Shown here in pieces: positions 42,549 to 57,283 of a DNA stretch of 64,000 nt (position 1 is the stretch's first letter; each line of letters opens with the position of its first letter). The position numbers and the translations under genes were made by a program. Location of the stretch: contig CP055307.1 in NCBI GenBank assembly GCA_013374835.1, forward strand, positions 279,315 through 343,314, in the 5' to 3' direction. The notes beneath the pieces were generated by a model, which searched no databases, was not told the DNA's origin, and was given only the letters and a program-made list of their open reading frames with translations. The DNA is from Candidatus Woesebacteria bacterium (GTDB lineage: Bacteria > Patescibacteriota > Microgenomatia > UBA8517).

Positions 42549-43217
42549 ATGAAGAAAAAGTCAATAAAGTTTTTGGGAATAGTGTCTTTTTTATCTGGGA
42601 TTGGCTTGCTTTTTTATGTTTTATATCCTATTTTTTCTTATGAGATAGTAAGTAGTTTAAAATATCCTACTTATTTATCTCCGGTTCCTGAAGGACAGGT
42701 TTATGGGGCTGGTAAGCAAGATGTCGATTTTACAAAAGCAAGCAACTGGTTGCCCTTGAAAGAAACGAATTTTGATGAAGCAAGTGCTAAATATTATACT
42801 TTATCAATACCTTCATTGGATATAAAGAATGCAACTGTTTCTATAGGCGGGGAGGATTTATCTAAGTCGTTGATACAGTATCCAGGCACTGCTTATCCAG
42901 GTAGGCGTGGTAATGCTGTGGTATTTGGGCATTCTGTGCTTCCCCAATTTTTTAATCCCGAGGATTATCTTACAATATTTTCAACCTTACCTACTATTAA
43001 GAAGAATGATTCTATTTTTATTGAACATGACGGGATTACTTATGAATATAAAGTGGAAAGTTCGTTTGAGGTGCTGCCTACTGACATTCAGATACTTGAG
43101 CAGAATACAAGTGATTCGTTTTTAACGCTTGTAACCTGTGTGCCGCCTGGGCATCCGCTTCGTCCCAAAAGATTAATTGTGCGTGCAAGAGTTGTTCCTT
43201 TTGGCGAGAGGATATGA
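42549..43217 (+). CDS. Sortase family transpeptidase
   Basis: N-terminal transmembrane anchor, His in VVFGHSVL, catalytic Cys in LTLVTCVPP and Arg in RLIVRA. Confidence 0.75.
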   Translation: MKKKSIKFLGIVSFLSGIGLLFYVLYPIFSYEIVSSLKYPTYLSPVPEGQVYGAGKQDVDFTKASNWLPLKETNFDEASAKYYTLSIPSLDIKNATVSIGGEDLSKSLIQYPGTAYPGRRGNAVVFGHSVLPQFFNPEDYLTIFSTLPTIKKNDSIFIEHDGITYEYKVESSFEVLPTDIQILEQNTSDSFLTLVTCVPPGHPLRPKRLIVRARVVPFGERI

Positions 43218-43603
43218 TGAGAAATTATTTGGGTATTGATTATGGTGAGAAAAGAACGGGTGTGGCTTTGTCTTTTGGGAAATTTGGAGAGCCTTATTGC
43301 GTGTTGGAGCATAAAGATGATTTAGAACTTATCACAAAGATAATAGGTATTATAAAAGAAAAGAAAATTGATGAGATTGTGGTGGGTGTATCCGAGGGTG
43401 AGATGGGTGGAAAACAGAGGGAGTTTGCTAATTTACTAAAGCGTAAAAGTGGCAAAAAAGTTCATCTTGTTGATGAGACTTTAAGTAGTGTTGAGGCTTT
43501 AGATAAGGCTATTAAAGCCGGTAAGAGTAGGAAAAAAAGGAGAAATTTTTTGGATGCATATTCTGCCTCATTGATTTTGGAGAGGTTTTTTGATTATAAT
43601 TAG
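43214..43603 (+). CDS. ruvX: Putative pre-16S rRNA nuclease / Holliday junction resolvase-like RuvX (YqgF)
   Basis: YLGIDYGEKRTGVALS...IDEIVVGVSEGEMGG...VHLVDETLSS...DAYSASLILERFF. Confidence 0.8.
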   Translation: MMRNYLGIDYGEKRTGVALSFGKFGEPYCVLEHKDDLELITKIIGIIKEKKIDEIVVGVSEGEMGGKQREFANLLKRKSGKKVHLVDETLSSVEALDKAIKAGKSRKKRRNFLDAYSASLILERFFDYN

Positions 43604-43610
43604 ATAATTT

Positions 43611-43817
43611 ATGATTAAAAGCGTAATTGCTCCAATTCAAGCTTGGCTTTTGAGTCAAGGAAAGTGTGTAGGATGCGGGCGTGAGCTTAGTAAGGGAAAG
43701 CTGGAAAATTTTAAAAAGGGATACAAAAAGGTTACTTGCAAAAAATGCGGCAGGATTTTTATTTTTGATGAAAAAAAGAAAACATATCGCAGGGCGCTTC
43801 TTGATGAAGTTTCTTAA
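43611..43817 (+). CDS. Small zinc-ribbon protein (2x CxxC), hypothetical
   Basis: CVGCGRE...CKKCGR in 68 aa. It overlaps the mltG start by 14 nt. Confidence 0.35.
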   Translation: MIKSVIAPIQAWLLSQGKCVGCGRELSKGKLENFKKGYKKVTCKKCGRIFIFDEKKKTYRRALLDEVS

Positions 43818-44802
43818 ATTATTAATAATAGTTATTTTATTTTTTGTTTTATTTGTTAGTGGTTTGGTGTTTTGGTGGACAAATGCTACAGAAGCACCGA
43901 GTGTAGAACCTATTGAAAAACGATTTATTATTGTTAAGGGTTCTTCTGCTAAAGAAATAGCCGAAGATCTTTATGATCAGGGCTTAATTAAGAGTAAATT
44001 GGCGTTTAAAATTTATGTACAGTTTAAAGGTTTGTCAAAAAGTATACCCCCAGGTGAGTTTGATTTGAAGAATAATCTCTCTCTTTTTAGGCTTGTAAAC
44101 GAACTTTTATCTGGGCCAAGTGAGTTTTGGGTAACTATTCCCGAAGGATTGAGGCGTGAACAGTACCCAATGCTGTTTATCAAATCTTTGGGTATTAAGG
44201 GAGAGCGCGCAGAAGAGTTTGTTGAGAGCTTTTTGGAGGCTTCTGCCGGAATGGAGGGATATTTGTTTCCTGATACTTATCTTTTTCCCGGTGATGTTCA
44301 GGCTTTTCAAGTGGTCGAAGTTTTAAGAAATACTTTTGACAAAAAGTTTGACATAGGTACGCGTCCAACGGAGCTTAGTTTAGATGAAGTTGTTATTCTG
44401 GCTTCTATTATCGAAAGAGAGACCCGGAATTCTGACGAACGGGAGGATGTTGCTGGTGTTTATATGAAAAGGATTGAATCCGGCTGGACTTTGGATGCTG
44501 ATGCGACCGTTCAATATGCCGTTGCCAGCGAACGTTGTAGCGGGCGGGAATTAGAAGATTGTGATTGGTGGCCAAGGCCATTAACCAAAGAAGATTTGGA
44601 TTCTTTGTCGATTTACAATACTTATAAATATGTAGGGCTTCCTCCTTCTCCGATTGCGAATCCCGGTCTTTCTTCTTTGGAGGCGGTTTTAAATTATAGA
44701 GATAATGAGTATTGGTTTTATGTTCATGATTTAGAGGGAAATATACATTTTGCAAAGACGCTTAAAGAGCATAATGACAATGTAGACAAATATTTACGTT
44801 GA
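43804..44802 (+). CDS. mltG: Endolytic murein transglycosylase MltG (YceG family)
   Basis: N-terminal transmembrane anchor, then VTIPEGLRREQ, EGYLFPDTY, ASIIERET and TVQYA motifs. The start is set at MKFLKLLII rather than the track start at 43681. Confidence 0.8.
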   Translation: MKFLKLLIIVILFFVLFVSGLVFWWTNATEAPSVEPIEKRFIIVKGSSAKEIAEDLYDQGLIKSKLAFKIYVQFKGLSKSIPPGEFDLKNNLSLFRLVNELLSGPSEFWVTIPEGLRREQYPMLFIKSLGIKGERAEEFVESFLEASAGMEGYLFPDTYLFPGDVQAFQVVEVLRNTFDKKFDIGTRPTELSLDEVVILASIIERETRNSDEREDVAGVYMKRIESGWTLDADATVQYAVASERCSGRELEDCDWWPRPLTKEDLDSLSIYNTYKYVGLPPSPIANPGLSSLEAVLNYRDNEYWFYVHDLEGNIHFAKTLKEHNDNVDKYLR

Positions 44803-44822
44803 TGGTAACTTATAGTTTATAC

Positions 44823-44850
44823 TTGACATGTAATTTGTCTTTAGTATAAT
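44823..44850 (+). promoter_or_regulatory. Consensus sigma70 promoter TTGACA-16-TATAAT driving rpoBC
   Basis: Perfect hexamers at 44823-44828 and 44845-44850, about 85 nt upstream of the rpoBC ATG. Confidence 0.65.
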
Positions 44851-44935
44851 TCAGACTAGGCGTACTGGAGTAGGCTAAATTGGCTCGCGACAGCGGGCAT
44901 TTTATTTACTCCCAAAAAAGGAATTTATATACCTC

Positions 44936-47900
44936 ATGGCGGATAACAATAAGCGGCGTAATTTTGGTAAAGAGGAGAAAAACCTGCCAGAGCTTGATTT
45001 ATCTCTTATTCAGAGAGAAAGTTGGCAGTGGTTTTTGTCGGAGGGAATTGCTTCTGAAATTTCTCAGATAAGTCCTATTGATGATTTTACCGGCAAGAAT
45101 TGGCAGCTTGTTTTGGGCGAGCATACTCTTGAGGAGCCTGAAATTAATCCAAAGAGTGCTATTGAAAAAGGTTTAACATATTCGGCTCCGTTTAAGATTC
45201 AGACAAGTCTGATTAATAAAAATACCGGTGAGAGAATTGACCAAGAGGTGTTTTTGGGCAATCTTCCCCAAATGACGGCTTCCGGGACGTTTATTATAAA
45301 CGGTATAGAAAGAGCCGTCATTAATCAGCTTGTAAGATCATCCGGTGTTTATTTTTCGGGAGAACAGGATACAACTTCCGGGCGGATGCTTTATATGGCT
45401 GAAGTAAGGCCTCTTCGTGGCAGTTGGCTTGAGTTTGAAATAAATAAAAACGATGTTATATGGGCAAGAATTGATAAAAGAAGAAAAATAAATGCGGCTA
45501 CAATTCTTCGTGCACTTGGTTATGAAAATAATAAGGATATTTTGAATTTATTTACGGATGTAGATACAGACAAAGAACATCAGTATATAAAAACAACTTT
45601 GGCAAAAGATTTATCTTCGACTCGTGAAGAAGCGCTTTTGGAAATTTATAGGAAGTTAAGGCCAGGGGAGCCGGCTGTCTTGGAAAATGCCGAGGGTTTG
45701 TTTAATAGTTTGTTTTTTGATCACAGAAGGTATGACTTGGGTCGTGTGGGGAGATATAAGATAAACAAGAAGCTTGGGCAGGATGTTCCGAACGATGAAC
45801 AAAATTGGGTTTTGATAAAGGAGGACTTTGTAAACACGATATCTTATCTGATTGGTCTTCAAAACGGTGTGGGTGAAATTGACGATATTGATCATCTTGC
45901 GAATAGAAGATTAAGAAGAGTCGGTGAGCTTGTAGCTACTCATGCATTTAGGGTGGGGCTTTTGAGACTCGAAAGATCCGTTAAGGAGAAGATGAGCCTT
46001 ATCTCACCAGATGATAAACCTCAGCCTCAGAATCTTATTAATGCAAGGCCTTTGATTGCTTCAATTAACGAGTTTTTTAGGTCAAATCAGCTTTCGACAA
46101 TACTTGATGATACAAACCCTTTAAGCGAGATTGATAATCTAAGGCGCGTAACGGTTTTGGGTCCTGGAGGTATAAATCGAGAAAGGGCTTCGTTTTCAAT
46201 ACGTGATATTAATTCTTCCCAGTATGGAAGGATTGATCCTGTAAGAAGTCCTGAGGGTCCGAATATTGGACTTGTTACTTATCTTGCTTTATATGCTCAT
46301 ATAAATGAGTATGGTTTTATTGAATCTCCTTATAGAAAAGTAGAAAAGGTAAAGGTAAAAGGAAAAACAGAGGTAAGGGTAACTGATGAGACGGTTTATT
46401 TAACGGCCGATGATGAAGAGAATTATCATATTACACACTCGGATGTGACGCTTGATAAGCGCGGATTTATCCAAGAAAAAAGACTTGCTTATAGATATAA
46501 AGGAGCTTTTATGGAGGGACCGTCTAGTTTGGTTGATTTAATTGATTTGACTCCCAGGCAGGTGTTTGGCGTTTCTGCGGCCTTAATTCCATTTTTGCCA
46601 AATGACCATGGGAATAGAGCTCTTATGGGTAGCAATATGCAGTGTCAGGCTGTTCCTTTGATCAAACCTTCTTCGCCAGTTATTGGCACAGGTATGGAGG
46701 AGATTGTGGCTGGAGCGATGGGTAGAGTAATAAGAGCTTTTTATCCTGGAACAGTAACGTATGTTGATGCCGAGCGGATTGATGTGGAGCTTGAAAAGAA
46801 AATTGAGAGTAATGGAAATTATGGAGCTAATATTGAGATAAGCGACGGTGGTAAAAAGATAACTTATTTTTTGACTAAGTTTAAGAGGACTTCGCAGTCA
46901 ACGTCTTATAATCAGAAGGCAGTAGTAAATGTTGGAGCTAAGGTTAAAAAAGGAGATCTTTTAGCAGACGGACCTTCTTGTGAATTAGGAGAGCTTGCTT
47001 TGGGGCAGAATTTGGTTATAGCTTATGCAAGTTTTGAAGGATATGGATTTGAGGATGCAATTTTGGTTTCCAGCAGACTTGTAGAGGATGATCTTTTGAC
47101 ATCGGTTCATATTAAGGAATATCAAGCAGATGTTGTAGAAACTAAATTGGGTCCTGAGGAGTTGACTCGGGATATTCCAAACGTTGCCGAGCAGGAGCTC
47201 GCTAATCTTGCCGAGGACGGGATTGTTGTGATAGGTGCTGAAGTGGGGCCGAATGATATTCTGGTTGGAAAAATTGCACCTAAAGGCGAAACGGAATTAA
47301 CCTCGGAAGAGAGGCTTCTAAGAGCTATTTTTGGAGAAAAGGCTCGTGAAGTTAGGGATACTTCTTTGAGAGTTCCACACGGAGAAGGTGGTATAGTTGT
47401 TGATGTGAATATTTTAGATAAAGATAAGGGTGACGAGTTGGGTCCAGGAGTGATAAAAAGCGTGATCGTAAAAGTTGCGCAGCTTAGAAAGGTGATGGTT
47501 GGAGATAAATTAGCCGGTAGGCATGGAAATAAAGGTGTGATTGCACGTATTCTTCCTGAGGAGGATATGCCATATTTGGAAGACGGAACTCCGGTTGACA
47601 TAATTATTTCTCCATTATCTGTGTTGGCTCGTATGAATTTGGGACAGCTTCTTGAAGTTCATCTTGGATGGGCTTTGAGTAAAAAGGGCGAGAAAGGTGC
47701 AATTCCTGTTTTTGATCGTATATCTGAGGATGTAATTACAAAGGAGCTTAAATCAGCGGGGCTTCCGGTTGACGGTAAAGCAAAGCTTTTTGATGGTAGG
47801 ACGGGTGAAGCTTTTGAGGAGAATACAGTGGTTGGTGTGGGTTATATCCTTAAACTTAAGCATATGATTGAGGATAAAACCCATGCTCGTTCGACTGGGC

Positions 47901-50900
47901 CTTATTCGTTAGTTACACAACAGCCCTTAGGCGGAAAGGCACAAATGGGCGGACAAAGACTTGGAGAGATGGAGGTATGGGCGCTTGAAGCTCATAGGGC
48001 AGCTTATACATTGCAAGAGATGCTGACAATTAAGTCTGATGATATTATTGGGCGCGCCCAGGCTTTTGGTGCGATAGTGAAGGGCGAGCCTATTCCTGAG
48101 GCACGGGTTCCTGAAAGTTTTAAGGTATTGATTAGGGAGCTAAACTCTCTTGGATTATCTGTAAATATTGAAGGAAGAGTTGCAATAAAAGATGAAGGTG
48201 AAGAGGAAAACGGTCGTGAATCGGAAAGTATGGAGATAAAAAGTGACCAAAAAATGGATCCTTTGGCTGTACTTAAGAGTTTGGATGATATTACTTCTTT
48301 ACAGATTAAACTTGCTTCACCTGAGGAAATAAGAGCTTGGTCCAAGGGTGAAGTTATAAAACCCGAGACTATTAACTATAGAACGTTAAAGCCTGAAAAG
48401 GACGGTCTTTTTGACGAAAGAATATTTGGTCCTACAAAGGATTATGAGTGTTATTGCGGCAAATATAAAAGGATTAGATATAAAGGTGTTGTGTGCGATA
48501 AGTGCGGTGTTGAAGTAACAGAGTCTAGGGTTAGAAGAGAAAGAATGGGCCATATTGAACTTGCGGCACCAGTTGTCCATGTTTGGTACTTTAAAGGTGC
48601 ACCGTCGAAAGTTTCACTTCTTCTTGGGCTTCCGCCTCGGGCGGTTGAGCAGGTTGTTTATTTTGCTAGGTATATGGTTATGAGTGTTGATGAAGAATTG
48701 AGAAAGGAAGCGCTTAAGAATATTGAAAATATTCATGTTGAGAAAATAAAGGAGATAAAAGAGATATACCGAGATCAAAAGCAGATCGTAGAAACAGATG
48801 CAAAAGAGCGAAAAGAGCGTGTTAAGTCCAGAGTTAAAGACAAGGACCAGCTGGCTTTGGCTTTGAGCGAGGTGGATCTTGGGTTGCGAAAGAAGATAAC
48901 TTCGATTACCGAAGAAGAAAAAAGCTCGATTGAAAAGACAGATGATCTTTTTCAGAAGATTAAGCAGTTAATTAAAGATATTAAAAAGTATGGTTTTTTA
49001 ACCGAGGATGAATATGACAAGCTTTATGGGTATGGCGTTGCCGATTTTGTTGAGGTAAAGATGGGTGCGGAGGCTGTACTTGAAGTGCTTAAAAGCATTA
49101 ATCTTGAGGAACTTTCAAAGGAAATAAGAAAAGAGCTCAAAGAAATTAAGGGCAAGGGCCCAAGATATGTGAAATTAACGAAACGGCTTAAGATAATTGA
49201 CGGGATGAGGGATGCAAAGATAGATCCGTCTTGGATGGTTCTTAAGGTTCTTCCTGTTTTACCTCCCGATTTGAGGCCCATGGTTCAGCTTTCAGGTGGG
49301 AGATTTGCGACGAGTGATTTGAATGATCTTTACAGAAGGGTGATTAATAGGAACAATAGACTTAAGCACCTTATTTCTCTTGGAGCGCCCGAGATTATTT
49401 TGAGAAATGAAAAGAGGATGCTTCAGGAATCTGTAGATTCTTTGATTGACGCGTCACAGAGAAAAGCAACCAGAAGAGGTAGGGGAAGGCAACCTTTGAG
49501 ATCTTTATCTGATATGCTTCGCGGTAAGCAAGGAAGATTTCGACAAAATCTTTTGGGTAAGCGCGTTGATTATTCCGGCAGAAGCGTGATTGTCGTGGGT
49601 CCTGAGCTTAAACTAAATCAGTGCGGTATCCCAAAAGAGATGGCTTTGGAGATAGCTAAGCCTTTTGTTCTTCGTGAAATGATTTCAAGAGGCATGGCTC
49701 CTAATGTGAAAAGTGCAAAAAATATGCTTGAGAGAAGACCTTCCGAAGTTTTTGATATTCTTGAGGAAATAACGAAAAATCATCCTGTTCTTTTGAATAG
49801 GGCACCGACTCTTCATAAGCTTGGTTTTCAATCTTTTTATCCGGTTCTTATTGAGGGTAACGCGATACGTCTGCATCCAGCGGTCTGTAAGGGTTACAAT
49901 GCTGATTTTGATGGTGATCAAATGGCAGTTCATCTGCCGTTATCTACGAATGCCATACGAGAATCTATTGAGCTTATGATGTCGGACAAGAATCTATTAA
50001 GGCCTGCGGACGGATCCCCGATGGCTGCTCCTGCTTCAAAAGAAATAGCTCTTGGGCTTTATTTCTTGACCATTATTGATGAGCGAATTGCAAAATCTGA
50101 TGTTATTTTTTCTGATTTCAACGAGGTGATTTTAGCTTATGGGCTTTCGAAAATTAATCTTAGACAGAAGATATCAGTAAGATATAACGGAAAGATTATT
50201 GAAACTACGCCCGGAAGAATTTTGTTTAACGAGATATTACCGCCTCAATTTGATTATATTAATGAAAATGTAAGTTCAGACGTTATTAAAAAAATTATTG
50301 ATGATGCCTTTAGTAAGGTGACTCACGAGGAGCTTGTTAGAATGATCGATGATATTAAAGACCTTGGTTTTATGGGAGGGACAGTATCTGGACTTTCTTT
50401 TGGAGTTACTGATGCGATAGTCCATCCAGAAAAGGACAAAATTATTGAAAGGGCAAATAAGCGAGTTTCAGACGTGGAGAACAATTTTGCTCAGGGACTT
50501 ATAACCCTTGAGGAGAAAAAGAGGTTGACAAAGGATATTTGGATTGAGACTACAGAGGAGATAGTCGATAAAACTTGGGATCTTCTTGATCCTATTGGAT
50601 CTATTAGAATGGTGATTGACGCTAAAGTGGGCAGAACTTCTAGGGACCAGATTAAACAGCTTTCCGGAATGATCGGTCTTGTTGTAGATCCTTTGGGAAA
50701 GGTGGTTGAGCTTCCTGTTAAGTCTAATTTTAGAGAGGGACTTTCTGTGTATGAGTATGTAAACGGAAGTCGTGGAGCGAGAAAAGGGCTGACTGATACT
50801 GCTCTTAAGACTGCTGATGCAGGATATCTTACCCGCCGGCTTGTAGATGTTGCCCACGATGTTATTGTAAGGGAGGAAGATTGTGGTGTTGAAGAGGGAC

Positions 50901-51964
50901 TTTTGGTCACAAGATCTTCTAGACCAAAGATGTTTTTGAGAAGGATCGTTGGAAGAGTGGCTGCTAATGATATAAAGGATGCAAAAGGTAAAGTTATAGT
51001 TGCAAAGGGTGAAATTATTGAGGAAACAAAGCTTTCGGATATTGAAAAGGCTGGTATTTCACAGGTTTCTATTCATTCTCCATTGACTTGTAATACAAGA
51101 TATGGAGTTTGTAGAAAATGTTACGGATGGGATTTGTCTACCAAGAAGCTTGTTGATATTGGTACTCCAGTGGGAGTTCTGGCGGCTCAATCTATCGGTG
51201 AGCCTGGTACACAGCTTACTATGAGAACTAAACATAGCGGTGGTGTAGTGGGAGTTGACGTTACACAAGGTTTGCCTAGAGTTGAAGAGCTTTTTGAATC
51301 GAGAAGTCCTAAGATTCAATCTTCTTTGGCTGAAATTTCTGGGAAAGTTAAGATTGAGGAGACAGAAGTCGGGTGGAATGTGATTATTAGGAATTCCGGT
51401 ACAAAGCCACCTGAAGAGAGAGCGTATTTTGTTCCTAAGACCCAGAAGTTAATGGTAGAGGACGGAGAGAGTGTGGAAGTGGGAGCTCAGCTTTCAAGTG
51501 GATACCTTGATATTAAGGAAATTTTGTTAATTAAAGGGCTCAAGGCGGCACAGGAATATTTAGTAACAGAGCTTCAAACTGTTTATGAATCACAGGGAAT
51601 ACCAATTAACGACAGACATTTTGAGGTGATAGTTAGAAAAATGAGTGATGAGGTTAAGATAATTACTGCGGGAGATACTGATCTTCTTCCCGGTGAACAA
51701 ATTGAGAAGGCAAAATTTGAAGAGGAAAACGAGAGAGTTTTGGCGGCAGGAGGAGAGGCTGCTACTGCTTCGCAGATAATTCTTGGGATTACCAGAAGGG
51801 CGATGTATACAGAGAGCTGGCTTTCTGCAGCAAGTTTTCAGCAAACGACAGATGTACTTTCTGATTCGGCATTAATGGGTAGAACTGATAAGCTTATTGG
51901 CTTGAAAGAAAATGTAATTATTGGTAGGCTTATACCTGTTTCGCCTGATAGGGTGATGCTTTAA
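44936..51964 (+). CDS. rpoBC: Fused DNA-directed RNA polymerase beta-beta' subunit (RpoB-RpoC single polypeptide)
   Basis: One uninterrupted 2342-aa ORF. The RpoB N-terminus (LDLSLIQRESWQWFL) runs to a beta C-terminus (ESFKVLIRELNSLGLSVNIE). A ~20-aa acidic linker (GRVAIKDEGEEENGRESES) leads in frame into the beta' N-terminus (LASPEEIRAWSKGEVIKPETINYRTLKPEKDGLFDERIFGP...CGKYKR...CDKCGVEVT...NADFDGDQMAVH). Confidence 0.85.
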   Translation: MADNNKRRNFGKEEKNLPELDLSLIQRESWQWFLSEGIASEISQISPIDDFTGKNWQLVLGEHTLEEPEINPKSAIEKGLTYSAPFKIQTSLINKNTGERIDQEVFLGNLPQMTASGTFIINGIERAVINQLVRSSGVYFSGEQDTTSGRMLYMAEVRPLRGSWLEFEINKNDVIWARIDKRRKINAATILRALGYENNKDILNLFTDVDTDKEHQYIKTTLAKDLSSTREEALLEIYRKLRPGEPAVLENAEGLFNSLFFDHRRYDLGRVGRYKINKKLGQDVPNDEQNWVLIKEDFVNTISYLIGLQNGVGEIDDIDHLANRRLRRVGELVATHAFRVGLLRLERSVKEKMSLISPDDKPQPQNLINARPLIASINEFFRSNQLSTILDDTNPLSEIDNLRRVTVLGPGGINRERASFSIRDINSSQYGRIDPVRSPEGPNIGLVTYLALYAHINEYGFIESPYRKVEKVKVKGKTEVRVTDETVYLTADDEENYHITHSDVTLDKRGFIQEKRLAYRYKGAFMEGPSSLVDLIDLTPRQVFGVSAALIPFLPNDHGNRALMGSNMQCQAVPLIKPSSPVIGTGMEEIVAGAMGRVIRAFYPGTVTYVDAERIDVELEKKIESNGNYGANIEISDGGKKITYFLTKFKRTSQSTSYNQKAVVNVGAKVKKGDLLADGPSCELGELALGQNLVIAYASFEGYGFEDAILVSSRLVEDDLLTSVHIKEYQADVVETKLGPEELTRDIPNVAEQELANLAEDGIVVIGAEVGPNDILVGKIAPKGETELTSEERLLRAIFGEKAREVRDTSLRVPHGEGGIVVDVNILDKDKGDELGPGVIKSVIVKVAQLRKVMVGDKLAGRHGNKGVIARILPEEDMPYLEDGTPVDIIISPLSVLARMNLGQLLEVHLGWALSKKGEKGAIPVFDRISEDVITKELKSAGLPVDGKAKLFDGRTGEAFEENTVVGVGYILKLKHMIEDKTHARSTGPYSLVTQQPLGGKAQMGGQRLGEMEVWALEAHRAAYTLQEMLTIKSDDIIGRAQAFGAIVKGEPIPEARVPESFKVLIRELNSLGLSVNIEGRVAIKDEGEEENGRESESMEIKSDQKMDPLAVLKSLDDITSLQIKLASPEEIRAWSKGEVIKPETINYRTLKPEKDGLFDERIFGPTKDYECYCGKYKRIRYKGVVCDKCGVEVTESRVRRERMGHIELAAPVVHVWYFKGAPSKVSLLLGLPPRAVEQVVYFARYMVMSVDEELRKEALKNIENIHVEKIKEIKEIYRDQKQIVETDAKERKERVKSRVKDKDQLALALSEVDLGLRKKITSITEEEKSSIEKTDDLFQKIKQLIKDIKKYGFLTEDEYDKLYGYGVADFVEVKMGAEAVLEVLKSINLEELSKEIRKELKEIKGKGPRYVKLTKRLKIIDGMRDAKIDPSWMVLKVLPVLPPDLRPMVQLSGGRFATSDLNDLYRRVINRNNRLKHLISLGAPEIILRNEKRMLQESVDSLIDASQRKATRRGRGRQPLRSLSDMLRGKQGRFRQNLLGKRVDYSGRSVIVVGPELKLNQCGIPKEMALEIAKPFVLREMISRGMAPNVKSAKNMLERRPSEVFDILEEITKNHPVLLNRAPTLHKLGFQSFYPVLIEGNAIRLHPAVCKGYNADFDGDQMAVHLPLSTNAIRESIELMMSDKNLLRPADGSPMAAPASKEIALGLYFLTIIDERIAKSDVIFSDFNEVILAYGLSKINLRQKISVRYNGKIIETTPGRILFNEILPPQFDYINENVSSDVIKKIIDDAFSKVTHEELVRMIDDIKDLGFMGGTVSGLSFGVTDAIVHPEKDKIIERANKRVSDVENNFAQGLITLEEKKRLTKDIWIETTEEIVDKTWDLLDPIGSIRMVIDAKVGRTSRDQIKQLSGMIGLVVDPLGKVVELPVKSNFREGLSVYEYVNGSRGARKGLTDTALKTADAGYLTRRLVDVAHDVIVREEDCGVEEGLLVTRSSRPKMFLRRIVGRVAANDIKDAKGKVIVAKGEIIEETKLSDIEKAGISQVSIHSPLTCNTRYGVCRKCYGWDLSTKKLVDIGTPVGVLAAQSIGEPGTQLTMRTKHSGGVVGVDVTQGLPRVEELFESRSPKIQSSLAEISGKVKIEETEVGWNVIIRNSGTKPPEERAYFVPKTQKLMVEDGESVEVGAQLSSGYLDIKEILLIKGLKAAQEYLVTELQTVYESQGIPINDRHFEVIVRKMSDEVKIITAGDTDLLPGEQIEKAKFEEENERVLAAGGEAATASQIILGITRRAMYTESWLSAASFQQTTDVLSDSALMGRTDKLIGLKENVIIGRLIPVSPDRVML

Positions 51965-51976
51965 ATTTTTATTGAT

Positions 51977-52432
51977 ATGCCAACAGTTTCTCAATTAGTA
52001 CGAAAACCCAGAAAAAAACAAATTAAAAAGGCCAGAAGTGTAGCCTTGAAGAAGTGGTTTAACGCGAAGGATAGAATTTATAAGGTTTATTCTTCGCCAT
52101 TTAAGCGGGGTGTTGTTTTGTCTGTAAGGACAATGACGCCAAGAAAGCCAAACTCCGCTTTGCGTAAAGTTGCTCGTGTAAGGCTTTCGAATAAACAGGA
52201 GGTAACAGCATATATTCCGGGTGAGGGACATGAGATATCGGAGCACTCGATTGTTTTGGTTAGATCGGGACGCGTTAAGGACTTGCCGGGAGTAAGGTAT
52301 CAGGTTGTTAGAGGTAAATATGATGCAAGAGGAGTGGTAGGAAGAAAAACTTCCAGATCAAGATATGGTACTAAAAAGCAGGGAATAGCAACAGGTGGGG
52401 TGAGCTCTAGTGCTGAAGGAGGAGAGGAGTAA
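51977..52432 (+). CDS. rpsL: 30S ribosomal protein S12
   Basis: [14 protein letters not shown]...[17 protein letters not shown]...[15 protein letters not shown]. Has a short C-terminal extension. Confidence 0.95.
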
Positions 52433-52441
52433 AGAAATATT

Positions 52442-52921
52442 ATGCCTAGACGAGGTTATATAAAACAAAAAAGAGTTGAACTTGATCCTTTATACAATGA
52501 TTTTATGGTGGCGAAGCTTATTAATAGATCGATGAAGGACGGAAAAAAGTCTGTTTCTCAAAAACAAGTTTATAGAGCTTTTGAGATTATAAAGGAGCAG
52601 ACCAAAGAGGATCCTTTGGAAGTATTCAAAAGGGCGCTTGAGAATATGAGGCCTACTATGGAGGTGCGTCCGAGAAGAGTAGGAGGCGCTGCTTATCAGG
52701 TACCTATGCCTGTGAGGGGTAGTCGTCAGGATTCGCTTGCTATACGTTGGTTAATTGCTGCTGCAAGAAGCAGGCCGAATAGTGAGTTTCATACTTATGC
52801 AGAAAAGCTCGCAACCGAGCTTGTTGAAGCCTCAAAAGGTGAGGGTGTTGCTATCAAAAAGAAGCAGGAGGTAGAAAGGATTGCTGAAGCGAATAAGGCT
52901 TTCTCGCATTTTAGGTGGTAA
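52442..52921 (+). CDS. rpsG: 30S ribosomal protein S7
   Basis: MPRRGYIKQKRVELDPLYN...AIRWLI. Confidence 0.95.
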   Translation: MPRRGYIKQKRVELDPLYNDFMVAKLINRSMKDGKKSVSQKQVYRAFEIIKEQTKEDPLEVFKRALENMRPTMEVRPRRVGGAAYQVPMPVRGSRQDSLAIRWLIAAARSRPNSEFHTYAEKLATELVEASKGEGVAIKKKQEVERIAEANKAFSHFRW

Positions 52922-52927
52922 ATTTTT

Positions 52928-55093
52928 ATGGCTGTACAACAAACTAAGAAAAAGGCTTCTCTTGCGTCTATTGTAACTGAAAATCGTGAGGTTCCTTTAG
53001 AAAGAATTAGAAATATTGGAATTATTGCGCATATTGATGCAGGAAAGACCACGACTACAGAGAGAATTCTTTTTGAAACAGGAAAAACTTATAAGCACGG
53101 TTCGGTAGATGAGGGGACTACGGTAACTGATTGGATGGAGCAGGAAAGGGAGCGAGGGATTACTATTGTGAGCGCTGCAATAACAACTTTTTGGGATCTT
53201 CAATCCGATTCTTCTGTAGAGAATGGACATTATCGCGTTAATATTATAGATACTCCGGGACATATTGATTTTACTGCCGAGGTTGAAAGGTCTTTGAGGG
53301 TGTTGGATGGGGCGGTAATGGTTTTTGACGGTAGAACCGGAGTTGAATCGCAATCAGAGACCGTTTGGAGACAGGCCGATAGGTATCAAGTGCCTAGAAT
53401 TTGTATTTTAAACAAGCTTAATTTAATAGGTGCTGATTTTGAAGGAAGTATTAAATCTATAAGAACCAGGCTTGGTGCAAATGCGCTTCCTATACAGATG
53501 CCTGTCGGTATTGAGCATGATTTACGAGGTGTAGTTGATGTTATAAACATGAAGGCTTACACATATAAGGGTGTGGATGACAATAAGCTTACTGAGGAAG
53601 AAATTCCTGCTGATTTGAAGGAAAAGGCCAAATCTTATAGAGATGAACTTATTGAGGCGGTTGCAGAGTATGATGATGGTGTGCTTGAGAAATATCTTGA
53701 AGGTCAGGAGCTGGAGCCTAAAGATATAAAAAAAGCCATACGTGCGGGAGTGATTATGGGTAAATTTTTCCCAATTCTTGGGGGGGATAATAGAACTGTG
53801 ACTGTAAGAACGCTTCTTGATAGCGTAGTTGAATATTTACCCTCTCCTATTGATCTTCCACCCGTTGCTGGTGTAAATCCTAAAACAGGAAAAGAGGAAA
53901 CTCGGGAGAAAAATTTGGAAACACCGCTTTCTGCTCTTGCTTTTAAGGTAGTTACTGATCCGCATGTGGGGAGGCTTGTATATGTAAGAGTTTATTCAGG
54001 TAAGCTTAAGGCAGGAGAATCGGTTTATAACTCGAGTAAACAAACAACTGAAAGAATAGGAAAGCTTGTGCTTATGCATGCTGATCAAAGAGAGCTTATT
54101 GACGAAGCTTATTGTGGAGAGATTGTGGCTGTGGTGGGAAGCCGTGATTTAACAACGGGAGACACGATATGTGATCCGCGCAACCCAATAGTGCTTGAGT
54201 CGATTTCTTTTCCGGATCCTGTTATATCCCTTGCGATTGAACCTGCGACAAAGGCCGATCAAGAGAGAATGAGTCTTGCTTTAAATAAGCTTTCGGATGA
54301 AGATCCTACTTTTAGGATAAAAACAAACCATGAAACCGGTCAAACGATTATATCCGGGATGGGCGAGCTTCAGCTTGAAATTCTTGTTGATAGAATGAAA
54401 AGAGAATTTAATGTTGATGCAAAGACAGGAGCTCCACAGGTTGCTTATAAAGAGACTGTTAAGAGAGTTGCGACTGGTGAGGGTAAATATATAAGGCAGA
54501 CGGGCGGGCGTGGACAATATGGTCATTGTTTTCTTAGAATTGAGCCTTTGGGAAGGGGCGAGGGGGTAGTTTTTGTGTCTGAGATAAAGGGTGGCGCAAT
54601 TCCTTCCGAATTTATACCTGCTATTGAAAAAGGTGTTAAGGAGAAGCTTGAGTCAGGTATACTTGCGGGATATCCTGTGGTTGATTTGAAGGTTGCTGTT
54701 TACGACGGAAGTTTCCATGAGGTAGATTCTTCCGAGATTGCCTTTAAGATTGCTGGATCTTTAGCACTTGAGGAGGCTGCGAAAAAGGCGGACTTAGTGC
54801 TTTTGGAGCCTATTGTTAAGGTTGAAGTTACTACACCGGATGAATTTATGGGAGATGTGATTGGAGATCTTTCGAGTAGGAGAGCTCAAATACAGGGTAC
54901 TGAAGAAAGAGCGGGTTTGTCTGTAATAAATGCAATGGCTCCTTTGGCTGAGCTTTCGGGTTACGCAACAAGACTTAGGTCGCTATCGCAAGGAAGGGCG
55001 AGTGCTTATATTGAACCAAGCCATTATGAAGAAGTGCCGGCAAATATTTCTGAAAATATTGTTTCCCAGTCCGGCAGGGGATCTGTCTCTTGA
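52928..55093 (+). CDS. fusA: Elongation factor G
   Basis: IRNIGIIAHIDAGKTTTTERILF...DTPGHIDF and domains II-V. Possibly has a ~15-aa N-terminal extension. Confidence 0.95.
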   Translation: MAVQQTKKKASLASIVTENREVPLERIRNIGIIAHIDAGKTTTTERILFETGKTYKHGSVDEGTTVTDWMEQERERGITIVSAAITTFWDLQSDSSVENGHYRVNIIDTPGHIDFTAEVERSLRVLDGAVMVFDGRTGVESQSETVWRQADRYQVPRICILNKLNLIGADFEGSIKSIRTRLGANALPIQMPVGIEHDLRGVVDVINMKAYTYKGVDDNKLTEEEIPADLKEKAKSYRDELIEAVAEYDDGVLEKYLEGQELEPKDIKKAIRAGVIMGKFFPILGGDNRTVTVRTLLDSVVEYLPSPIDLPPVAGVNPKTGKEETREKNLETPLSALAFKVVTDPHVGRLVYVRVYSGKLKAGESVYNSSKQTTERIGKLVLMHADQRELIDEAYCGEIVAVVGSRDLTTGDTICDPRNPIVLESISFPDPVISLAIEPATKADQERMSLALNKLSDEDPTFRIKTNHETGQTIISGMGELQLEILVDRMKREFNVDAKTGAPQVAYKETVKRVATGEGKYIRQTGGRGQYGHCFLRIEPLGRGEGVVFVSEIKGGAIPSEFIPAIEKGVKEKLESGILAGYPVVDLKVAVYDGSFHEVDSSEIAFKIAGSLALEEAAKKADLVLLEPIVKVEVTTPDEFMGDVIGDLSSRRAQIQGTEERAGLSVINAMAPLAELSGYATRLRSLSQGRASAYIEPSHYEEVPANISENIVSQSGRGSVS

Positions 55094-55127
55094 CAAAGCT
55101 TGGTGGTATTGTAATAATACCCTTAAT

Positions 55128-55153
55128 TTCCGCAAAAAGCGGAAGTTATTTTT
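55128..55153 (+). terminator. Hairpin plus U-tract (terminator or attenuator) between fusA and tuf
   Basis: TTCCGC-aaaaa-GCGGAA followed by gTTATTTTT. A second hairpin, GGTATT-gtaat-AATACC, lies at 55105-55121. Confidence 0.45.
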
Positions 55154-55205
55154 CGCCTAAAATTAGGGCTTGAAAAAGTTTGAAAGATATAATAAATTAA
55201 CTATC

Positions 55206-56405
55206 ATGGCATCAGATACAAAACAAAAGTTTGAAAGAAACAAACCGCATGTAAATGTTGGTACTATAGGTCATGTTGACCACGGTAAAACTACTTTAAC
55301 TGCTGCAATTACTAATGTTCTTTCAAAACAGCCCGGTAATAATACAAAGCCTTTTAAGTTTGAAGATATTGATAACGCTCCTGAGGAGAGAGAAAGAGGA
55401 GTAACAATAAATATATCTCATATTGAATACGAAACGGAAAAGAGACATTATGCTCATATCGATGCTCCTGGTCACGCCGATTATATTAAAAACATGATTA
55501 CGGGTGCGGCTCAGATGGATGGAGCTATTTTGGTTATATCTGCTGCGGATGGACCCATGCCTCAAACGAAGGAGCATGTTATTCTGGCAAGACAAGTTAA
55601 TGTTCCTGCTTTGATTGTGTTTCTAAACAAGGTTGATACTGTTGATGACCCTGAGATTATTGATTTAGTTGAAGATGACGTACGGGAGCTTCTTAAGAAA
55701 TACGAATATCCAGGTGATGAAGTTCCTGTTATTCGCGGATCTGCGCTAAAAGCTTATGAGGGTGACCCCGAGGCTGAAAAGCAAATTTTAGAGCTTATGA
55801 AGGTAGTTGATGAGTATATTCCCGAACCCAAGAGAGAGGTTGATAAGCCTTTTTTGATGCATGTTGAAGACGTATTTTCTATTAAAGGACGAGGAACAGT
55901 AGCTACGGGGCGTGTTGAAAGAGGAAAACTTACGGTTAATGAGGAAGTTGAGATTGTCGGTATAAGGGATACTCAAAAGACTGTCGTTACTGGACTTGAG
56001 ATGTTTAGGAAAACTTTGGATGAAACCCAAGCGGGAGACAATGTAGGGGTTTTACTAAGAGGAATTGAGAAAGATCAGATTGAGAGAGGTCAGGTAATTG
56101 CAAAACCTGGATCTGTAACTCCTCATACCGAGTTTGAGGCGGAAGTTTATATTTTATCCAAAGATGAGGGGGGAAGGCATACACCATTCTTTACTGGATA
56201 TAAGCCACAATTCTTTGTGAGAACGGCAGACGTTACTGGTGAAGTTAACCTCCCTGAAGGAATTGAGATGGTTATGCCGGGTGATAACGCTAAAATGAAG
56301 GTTAAGCTTATTACTCCGGTTGCAATGGAGGAGGGGCTAAGATTTGCGGTTCGTGAGGGTGGAAAGACGGTTGGTGCAGGAGTAATCACCAAAATAATAA
56401 AATAA
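55206..56405 (+). CDS. tuf: Elongation factor Tu
   Basis: [36 protein letters not shown].... The start is moved from the track start at 55170 to the conserved N-terminus. Confidence 0.95.
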
Positions 56406-56426
56406 AATCTTCGCACTTTAATTAAA

Positions 56427-56735
56427 ATGGCTATAGGACGTATTAGGGTGAAACTTAAGAGTTATGATCATCGATTAATTGATGAAGCTGCTTCTAGGAT
56501 ATTGGATACGGCCATGGCAAGTGGGGCAAAGATAGCAGGCCCTACGCCGCTTCCTACAAAAAGAACTATTATACCTGTTCTTGAATCTCCATTTAAGCAT
56601 AAAGACGCACAGGAGCATTTTGAAATTTTGGTTCATAAAAGGCTTATTGATATTCTTGAACCTACAGAAAGAACTATCGATTCTTTGTCTAATTTAGATC
56701 TTCCAGCGGGAGTTTCCGTTGAGATTAAGATGTAA
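56427..56735 (+). CDS. rpsJ: 30S ribosomal protein S10
   Basis: RIRVKLKSYDHRLIDEAASRILDTA...HKRLIDILEPT. Confidence 0.95.
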   Translation: MAIGRIRVKLKSYDHRLIDEAASRILDTAMASGAKIAGPTPLPTKRTIIPVLESPFKHKDAQEHFEILVHKRLIDILEPTERTIDSLSNLDLPAGVSVEIKM

Positions 56736-57283
56736 TGAGGAGTTTTGTCTCAAGAGGTGGAGAAAAGCTTCAAGCGGCTTTGGAAGCTTTTAATATCAAT
56801 CCTGATGGTTTAATAGCTGCTGATTTTGGTGCTTCGACTGGTGGGTTTACAGATTGCCTTTTGCAAAATGGCGTTTTACGAGTATATGCGGTTGATACTT
56901 CTTATGGTGAGCTTCACTGGAAGCTTAGAAATGATCCGCGAGTTGTTGTGAAGGAGAGGACTAATGCAATGCACGTAATTTTACCTGAAAAAGTAGATAT
57001 AATTGTGATTGATACCGGTTGGACTAGGCAAGAAAAAATTATTCCAAATGCTCTAAAGAATTTGAAAAAGAATGGGTTGATTATAACTTTGATTAAACCT
57101 TATTATGAAGCTAATCCCAGCTTGATTCGTAAAGGTAGGCTTTCTGATGAGAGCGTTGACCAAGTGCTTTCTGTTGTAAAACTCAAAGTTGAAATGCTTG
57201 GAATTTGTGTTTCTAAGATTATTGAATCTCCGATTACTGGAGGACGCGCTGGTAATCGGGAGTTTTTAGCTCTTCTTGCTTGA
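56735..57283 (+). CDS. TlyA-like rRNA ribose-2'-O-methyltransferase (FtsJ fold; no N-terminal S4 domain)
   Basis: SRGGEKLQAALEAFNI...AADFGASTGGFTDCLLQNGVLRVYAVDTSYGELHWKLRNDPRVVVKERTNAMH closely matches the TlyA core. The ATG overlaps the last base of the rpsJ stop. Confidence 0.7.
   Translation: MRSFVSRGGEKLQAALEAFNINPDGLIAADFGASTGGFTDCLLQNGVLRVYAVDTSYGELHWKLRNDPRVVVKERTNAMHVILPEKVDIIVIDTGWTRQEKIIPNALKNLKKNGLIITLIKPYYEANPSLIRKGRLSDESVDQVLSVVKLKVEMLGICVSKIIESPITGGRAGNREFLALLA

Follow-up and report, generated by a model that had tools for sequence, protein, structure and literature searches.

Does a single gene of a Candidatus Woesebacteria bacterium encode both the β and the β′ subunit of RNA polymerase and, if so, how did it come about and what would it mean for the enzyme? 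The question is raised by a 64,000 nt stretch of contig CP055307.1 (assembly GCA_013374835.1, positions 279,315 to 343,314; the whole of this stretch is referred to below as the window), in the initial annotation of which rpoB and rpoC were described as one continuous ORF of 2342 aa. Natural fusions of these genes are named in the literature for Helicobacter and Wolinella (PMC1557499, PMC9696931) and for Wolbachia (PMC6403173), so that the citing of Helicobacter and Wolbachia as the classical cases was sound (PMC1557499, PMC6403173). The fused genes of Helicobacter and Wolinella are credited to Zakharova et al. (1998/1999) in PMC1557499 and PMC9696931. A synthetic rpoB–rpoC fusion of Escherichia coli is cited as functional in 10.1101/2021.11.05.467461, and Mycobacterium tuberculosis polymerase has been produced from a fused rpoBC construct, pMP61 (10.64898/2026.04.06.716786).

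A single ORF for two subunits

The ORF occupies positions 44936..51964 of the window (+ strand), begins with ATG and comprises 2342 codons followed by TAA, and both the ORF listing and the translation show no internal stop. As a 7-kb open frame is too long to be expected by chance, we regard the ORF as genuine. Its first part, aa 1–1080 (44936..48175, +), is a β module, with the Pfam domains Rpb2_1, 2, 3, 45, 6 and 7 at aa 65–1078, and it passes the curated equivalog cutoffs of two rpoB models with near full-length model coverage: NF001616 at 1403.7 bits (cutoff 896; aa 6–1079 corresponding to model positions 2–1095 of 1096) and TIGR02013 at 1406.2 bits (cutoff 801.15). The β′ module, aa 1107–2342 (48254..51961, +), follows on the same chain, with the Pfam domains Rpb1_1, 2, 3 and 5 extending up to aa 2264. 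It is assigned to rpoC by TIGR02386 on score (1516.4 bits against a cutoff of 963.5), on full-length coverage (aa 1122–2335, model positions 2–1138 of 1147) and on the presence in the translation of both the catalytic motif NADFDGD (YNADFDGDQMAVH) and the N-terminal zinc motif CxCx..CxxC. The description of rpoB and rpoC as one continuous reading frame is therefore borne out, with both modules complete. The TAA at 51962–64 is separated by the 12 nt originally reported from the ATG of rpsL (S12; 51977..52432, +) at 51977, and the fused gene is probably co-transcribed with rpsL, rpsG and fusA. Gene order across the region is sortase, ruvX, a small ORF, yceG, the promoter and leader, rpoBC, rpsL, rpsG, fusA, tuf and the S10 operon.

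When a fusion is read from a single assembly, it is important to consider that the linker may contain an overlooked stop codon or small indel, and that the organism has separate rpoB and rpoC genes after all. Consensus sequences of metagenome-assembled genomes may carry indels, and the linker DNA is A/G-rich and of low complexity. Against this, the Logan assembly of SRR7008310 (L081), which could have been built in part from the same reads as the source genome, is identical to the window over the gene (0 mismatches in 7029 nt) and over 3 kb upstream. Three proteins from JGI, ENA and NCBI that belong to the 90% cluster of the window protein (P0121–P0123) are 97.3% identical to it and likewise 2342 aa long, and their tether differs from that of the window by three substitutions and no indel. 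A search of 5.8 billion proteins yielded 66 full-length fused clusters of 2304–2366 aa with 59–78% identity and 100% coverage; these were drawn from NCBI, JGI, ENA and Logan assemblies, with some of the contigs being 0.6–0.94 Mb long, and their sources are named as Woesebacteria or Patescibacteria. In total, the diverged fused relatives number more than 70 protein clusters, including that of CP066693.1. At the DNA level, continuous ORFs of 2341, 2359 and 2331 aa were found in L082, L083 and L084, respectively, the last of which is the 916,571 bp NCBI record CP066693.1, and five further fused loci were recovered by an independent DNA-pattern scan that located them through the upstream leader and not through gene calls. 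The claim that no stop codon or frameshift lies between β and β′ is thus supported by the clean translation, by the base-identical Logan assembly and by the relatives: an alignment with close relatives, which had been proposed as a check, shows the frame kept through the junction in more than 70 fused relatives with linkers of differing length. We consider an assembly artefact effectively refuted and scarcely credible. By its architecture, one ORF with β preceding β′ that is reproducible across assemblies and relatives, the locus is a natural β–β′ fusion.

The junction between the modules

The linker had been described as acidic and about 20 aa long. Its acidic character was confirmed, and its extent required revision: 46 residues lie between the motifs SVNIE and LASPEE, of which the β′ N-terminal segment MDPLAVLKSLDDITSLQIK is conserved; the non-conserved part, which is also the variable part of the junction alignment, is the tether RVAIKDEGEEENGRESESMEIKSDQK at aa 1081–1106 (48176..48253, +). 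The peptide SDQKMDPLAVLK is an example of one that spans the junction of the fused chain. In the alignment of fused clusters the flanks are conserved as IRELNSLGL..IEG on the β side and DPLxxLxxLxDFxSLQIKLASPEEIR on the β′ side. The linkers of 69 relatives range from 5 to 57 aa (median 23) and fall into 25 distinct lengths, every one of them in frame, and they are rich in charged residues (E 19.6%, K 12%, D 9.5%) and poor in hydrophobic ones, their net charge averaging −3.3. A linker that varies freely and yet stays in frame is what selection would leave if it kept the frame open across a tether under no other constraint. Structure prediction with AlphaFold2 for a 301-aa junction fragment, using 15 sequences, gave a mean pLDDT of 45 and a pTM of 0.32, values too low to support any reading of the tether.

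The point of joining can be placed by comparison with unfused genes. Among 46 unfused loci from metagenomes, the rpoC ATG most often lies 36 codons before the invariant PETINYR, and in two unfused loci (L179 and L183) rpoC begins ATG GAT CCN TTA, i.e. MDPL. The window has M1107 followed by DPL at this same position, its ATG (48254..48256, +) lying 36 codons upstream of PETINYR as a relic of the ancestral rpoC start. The join is therefore between K1106 and M1107, and the linker is the acidic C-terminal tail of β itself; a comparable acidic tail is found at the end of β in unfused relatives (L001–L003, L085–L087). The β tail thus reads straight into the former rpoC start codon and, in our preferred explanation, acts as a flexible tether.

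Separate subunits might still be made, either by internal initiation at M1107 (or M1099), an ATG being retained at exactly the old rpoC start (48254–56), or by proteolysis of the tether, in which case the fusion would have no consequence at the protein level. The tether is charged, and with 20% hydrophobic residues as opposed to 34% in the whole protein it might be accessible to proteases. However, at seven of the eight further loci that are fused at the DNA level, a non-start codon occupies the old start (AAC, GTT, AGG, ACC, ACT, ATC and ACA), and among the fused proteins the residue preceding DPL is mostly other than Met. In the window itself no Shine–Dalgarno-like sequence is suitably spaced from the 48254 ATG: the best anti-Shine–Dalgarno pairing upstream is −1.5 kcal/mol and the nearest GGAG lies about 18 nt away. 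Fused and unfused loci did not differ significantly in Shine–Dalgarno strength ahead of the old rpoC start (p = 0.51). Furthermore, the product of the Helicobacter fusion has been described as one polypeptide of about 2900 aa (PMC1557499). Continued production of separate subunits is on this evidence improbable, and we prefer to regard the product as a single tethered chain.

Unfused relatives and the distribution of the fusion

How two genes could become one is suggested by the spacing of rpoB and rpoC in relatives that are not fused. A contig profile search with the junction alignment (in which the universal motifs PLGGKAQM and GGQRLGEM brought bacteria in general among the matches listed) identified gaps of 12 nt in a Woesebacteria UBA8517 contig (L001), 24 nt in a CPR-like contig (L002) and 69 nt in a Daviesbacteria contig (L003). 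Three loci within or beside the fused group are truly unfused at the DNA level: in L085, which carries the β′ protein P0130, the genes overlap by 4 nt (ATGA); in L087, which carries P0150, they overlap by 20 nt; and in L086, which carries P0147, they are in the same frame and separated by an in-frame TAG and one codon. Gaps in the 46 unfused metagenome loci are mostly between −22 and +14 nt; rpoB and rpoC share a frame in 19 of these, and in three TAA is directly followed by ATG. Since the genes abut or overlap in unfused relatives, one substitution or an indel of 1–2 nt would be enough for fusion. We therefore propose that loss of a single stop codon, or such an indel, between abutting rpoB and rpoC created the fused frame, which would then have been kept over most of the subclade while the tether drifted in length and sequence.

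Neighbour-joining trees of the β′ module were built from 198 sequences and then from 111 with 60 bootstraps. A wholly unfused Woesebacteria clade (bootstrap 100) is the sister of a clade of 85 tips (bootstrap 58) that is dominated by fused proteins: 73 of its tips are fused and 12 are not. One sister pair, with a bootstrap of 100, consists of unfused P0147 and fused P0148; the two have the sequence KQTDVVSEL in common immediately behind the join, a sign of a recent switch between the two states. Bootstrap values along the backbone are 1–58 and parsimony over the whole tree requires 5–8 state changes; with so weak a backbone, one fusion followed by reversions and several separate fusions fit the tree alike. 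Among the matches listed, the 52 loci that were found through the leader and reach the junction comprise 5 fused and 47 unfused cases. Three proteins taken at one stage for close unfused relatives (P0126, P0128 and P0139) were ruled out as such, as the corresponding DNA (L082, L083 and L084) has continuous ORFs; in these NCBI records the β′ product is called from an internal codon and the β product is absent.

The initial annotation had also suggested that the fusion marks the lineage. This is true of most of one Woesebacteria subclade but not of all of it, since 12 of the 85 tips are unfused, with three verified from DNA. In this large subclade of ultrasmall CPR bacteria the fusion is inherited, and it is usable, if imperfect, as a rare-genomic-change marker inside Woesebacteria. 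Taken together, we are confident that the locus is a natural β–β′ fusion that originated in a Woesebacteria ancestor and whose frame has since been kept across most of the subclade.

Relation to other fusions

Two NCBIfam models describe fused proteins, and the window protein falls well short of the cutoff of each: it scores 2113.2 bits against 5372 for the Helicobacter-type model NF007172 and 1974.3 bits against 4632 for the Wolbachia-type model NF011417. This failure in both models argues for an independent origin. All ten other fused proteins examined (nine from a HMMER scan, and P0071) also fail both. The HMMER search with the junction, over 1.84 billion cluster representatives, returned at least 13 full-length proteins of 2150–2812 aa that span both halves, and further fused groups are present in the tree (P0064–66, P0067/69/70, P0068 and P0071/72). 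With so many fused clusters, natural fusions are recurrent and under-recognized, and any single one is less surprising. The view that the fusion is notable is thus upheld in that it is real and of independent origin, but it is less exceptional than had been supposed, given the many other fused clusters in public data. Fusions of this type had been described before and recur, and the Woesebacteria case is a further independent instance. A PDB sequence search returned, among the best 60 matches, separate β and β′ chains only and no solved natural fusion.

In the Helicobacter/Wolinella protein (NF007172, about 2890 aa), as in the window, β is N-terminal to β′ in one ORF, and that fusion has served as a rare-genomic-change marker for its clade. 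However, it belongs to a different phylum and has an independent origin, and the window protein is only 2342 aa long because both of its modules lack the proteobacterial insertions; the window tether, moreover, is the acidic tail of β joined to the old start codon. The Wolbachia protein (NF011417, about 2839 aa) has the same architecture and comes again from a small-genome bacterium, but from an unrelated lineage; organisms of the window type come from environmental metagenomes. The engineered fusions of E. coli and M. tuberculosis (pMP61) resemble the window in having one rpoBC gene but are man-made with designed linkers, and are therefore uninformative on natural selection.

Expected consequences for the polymerase

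In bacterial RNA polymerase structures the C-terminus of β and the N-terminus of β′ are adjacent. For this reason we infer that the fused chain would fold into a normal core enzyme, in which tethering would enforce 1:1 stoichiometry and co-assembly and may help assembly, with an effect on the cell that would be close to neutral. Near-neutral tethering would account for the unfused state of neighbouring lineages. H. pylori in which the subunits were split by experiment is reportedly viable. The Helicobacter/Wolinella enzymes, the synthetic E. coli fusion and the M. tuberculosis construct show that tethering is tolerated in other systems.

The fusion might instead be an adaptive innovation that offsets a missing assembly factor, e.g. 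omega, in reduced genomes, rather than near-neutral compaction. Consistent with such a role, the frame has been maintained over a large and old subclade while the tether drifts freely, and engineered fusions serve for expression of the M. tuberculosis polymerase. Yet the fused clade has unfused members in it or next to it, a stop codon is all that distinguishes one sister pair, and genomes of the unfused sister clade are equally compact in style; we also found no literature on omega (rpoZ) in CPR bacteria. We consider an adaptive origin of this kind unlikely and retain near-neutral tethering as the preferred interpretation.

A conserved promoter and leader upstream of rpoB

The fused gene was said to lie behind a perfect promoter, and this proved accurate in both position and spacing. 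A sigma-70-type promoter is located at 44823..44850 (+), with TTGACA at 44823–28, a 16-nt spacer and TATAAT at 44845–50, and it is the only 12/12 match to the consensus between 43600 and 52600. Both hexamers and the 85-nt leader are conserved ahead of rpoB in relatives, whether or not these are fused. The pattern TTGACA-N16-17-TATAAT-N5-8-TAGGCGTAC, which combines the promoter with the first hairpin arm, has at least 120 matches in metagenomes, and among the matches listed rpoB lies behind it in all 52 loci with enough downstream DNA.

Two hairpins are discernible in the leader. The first (44859..44876, +; GGCGTAC, loop TGGA, GTAGGCT) is conserved in sequence in alignments A2 and A4; 94% of the cells of its helix are paired, and compensatory changes occur in three pairs (L084, L085 and L086 being among the sequences concerned). 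The second, identified by a terminator scan (44883..44908, +), consists of GCTCGC-GACA-GCGGGC and a U-rich tract, ATTTTATTTA, and shows compensatory changes in five of seven pairs. Across the 100 unique leaders of relatives, a GC-rich hairpin with a U tract is present in 80, compared with 4.4% of shuffled sequences, and it is formed by 50 different stems. Covariation was assessed on the trimmed alignment A4 with a hand-written structure: over both helices of the 47-sequence alignment 90.5% of cells are paired, compared with 34–54% when the structure is slid along the alignment, compensatory change is seen in eight pairs, and none of 500 shuffles reached the observed values. RNAalifold run on the raw MAFFT alignment of 100 leaders returned no structure, and Rfam assigned the leader to no family at gathering thresholds, with only chance-level matches (E ≥ 3).

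The element at 44883–44908 thus combines a GC-rich hairpin and a U tract, conservation of structure over sequence, and a location between promoter and start codon. It looks like an attenuator, and we regard it as a candidate regulatory element: the conserved consensus promoter would transcribe the unit through the two-hairpin leader, the second hairpin of which is terminator-like. The E. coli rplL–rpoB attenuator (10.1101/2021.11.05.467461) is likewise terminator-like and lies directly upstream of rpoB, in the same position as the window element, where it could set polymerase output; it has no sequence relationship to the window element, which follows its own promoter and not ribosomal protein genes. 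Of all that the locus has yielded, this conserved leader of rpoB offers the best prospect for further work.

Discussion

A broader reading of these observations would treat the rpoB/rpoC junction throughout Microgenomates as a labile switch that has flipped several times between spaced, abutting, overlapping and fused states, and would add to it an undescribed but widely conserved promoter–hairpin–terminator leader through which RNA polymerase synthesis in CPR bacteria would be attenuated and perhaps autoregulated. We put this forward tentatively, as an idea somewhat short of an even chance of being right in this combined form.

The Woesebacteria fusion is present in public records under inconsistent annotation, and the literature searched yielded no account of it, nor any mention of an rpoBC fusion in CPR bacteria. 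Both NCBIfam fused models are lineage-specific, and the fused proteins are named as either β or β′ in their source records. The three NCBI records that hold only an internally started β′ product may distort rpoB/rpoC marker-gene sets for Patescibacteria. As tethered polymerases are already known to work, the fusion opens no new mechanism. What it does is to extend the short list of natural β–β′ fusions, so far comprising Helicobacter/Wolinella and Wolbachia, by a CPR clade that is independent, large and old, and to show a route by which such a fusion can be reached, through loss of a stop codon between abutting genes, with the acidic tail of β serving as the tether.

Discussion

The fused rpoB-rpoC gene was found to be a single continuous ORF in each of three fused relatives of the window organism, at 1249-8274 in L082 (GCA_003599685.1), 1147-8226 in L083 (GCA_001792425.1) and 1300-8295 in L084 (CP066693.1), the full ORFs encoding 2331-2359 aa. 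The sole product listed in the corresponding NCBI records is a beta' subunit of 1241-1264 aa begun at an internal codon, and no beta product is recorded for the 3.3 kb upstream of it; the fused gene has therefore been mis-split, or annotated only in part, in all three. The cause is probably the specificity of the NCBIfam fused beta-beta' models, which describe the Helicobacter (NF007172) and Wolbachia (NF011417) types. Many further full-length beta-beta' fusions, of 2150-2903 aa, are present in public data (P0064-P0072, P0251, P0255, P0268, P0270, P0277-P0280, P0284, P0287, P0296, P0303 and P0314), and those members that were tested fall outside both the Helicobacter-type and the Wolbachia-type families. 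Two of them, P0071 and P0072, are encoded on 2.1-Mb contigs and have linkers rich in Ala, Pro and Gly.

Where the genes are unfused in Microgenomates, rpoB and rpoC are extremely close-packed, as judged from 46 unfused loci among the metagenome matches listed (L088-L207; for example L102, L121 and L171). The gap between them is mostly -22 to +14 nt, the two genes share a frame in 19 of the 46 loci, and in three the rpoB stop codon touches the rpoC start as TAAATG.

In the window, rpoB is preceded (44823-44935) by a consensus promoter, a 5' hairpin (GGCGTAC..GTACGC) and a GC-rich hairpin with a U tract, in that order. This arrangement precedes rpoB in many Microgenomates among the matches listed (L001-L003 and L082-L207), the first hairpin being kept in sequence and the second in structure; the leader matched no family in Rfam. 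It is a candidate transcription attenuator for the RNA polymerase genes. The GGCGTAC hairpin is present in L002 (CAYNMS010000008.1), a record entitled 'uncultured Pseudomonadales bacterium', whose short rpoB and rpoC products (1125 and 1235 aa) cluster with those of Microgenomates, beside the fused P0066. The MAG has probably been given the wrong name or contains contaminating sequence.

Every 2-kb bin of the window (1-64000) has a positive and very strong GC skew, of +0.17 to +0.41, and this persists at about 7-20 kb, where the long ORFs are mainly on the minus strand; a comparable one-directional G/C disparity has been reported in Microgenomates of the order UBA1400 (PMC7143001). Within 42549-57283, sortase, ruvX and yceG lie upstream of rpoBC, and the order yceG-rpoB(C)-rpsL is common to the window and L082-L087, the loci of fused and unfused relatives. 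Whereas rplKAJL precedes rpoBC in the E. coli operon (10.1101/2021.11.05.467461), it is not found ahead of the window rpoBC. The latter is separated by only 12 nt from rpsL-rpsG-fusA-tuf-rpsJ, and rpoBC is therefore probably the head of the str/S10 transcription unit in this organism.
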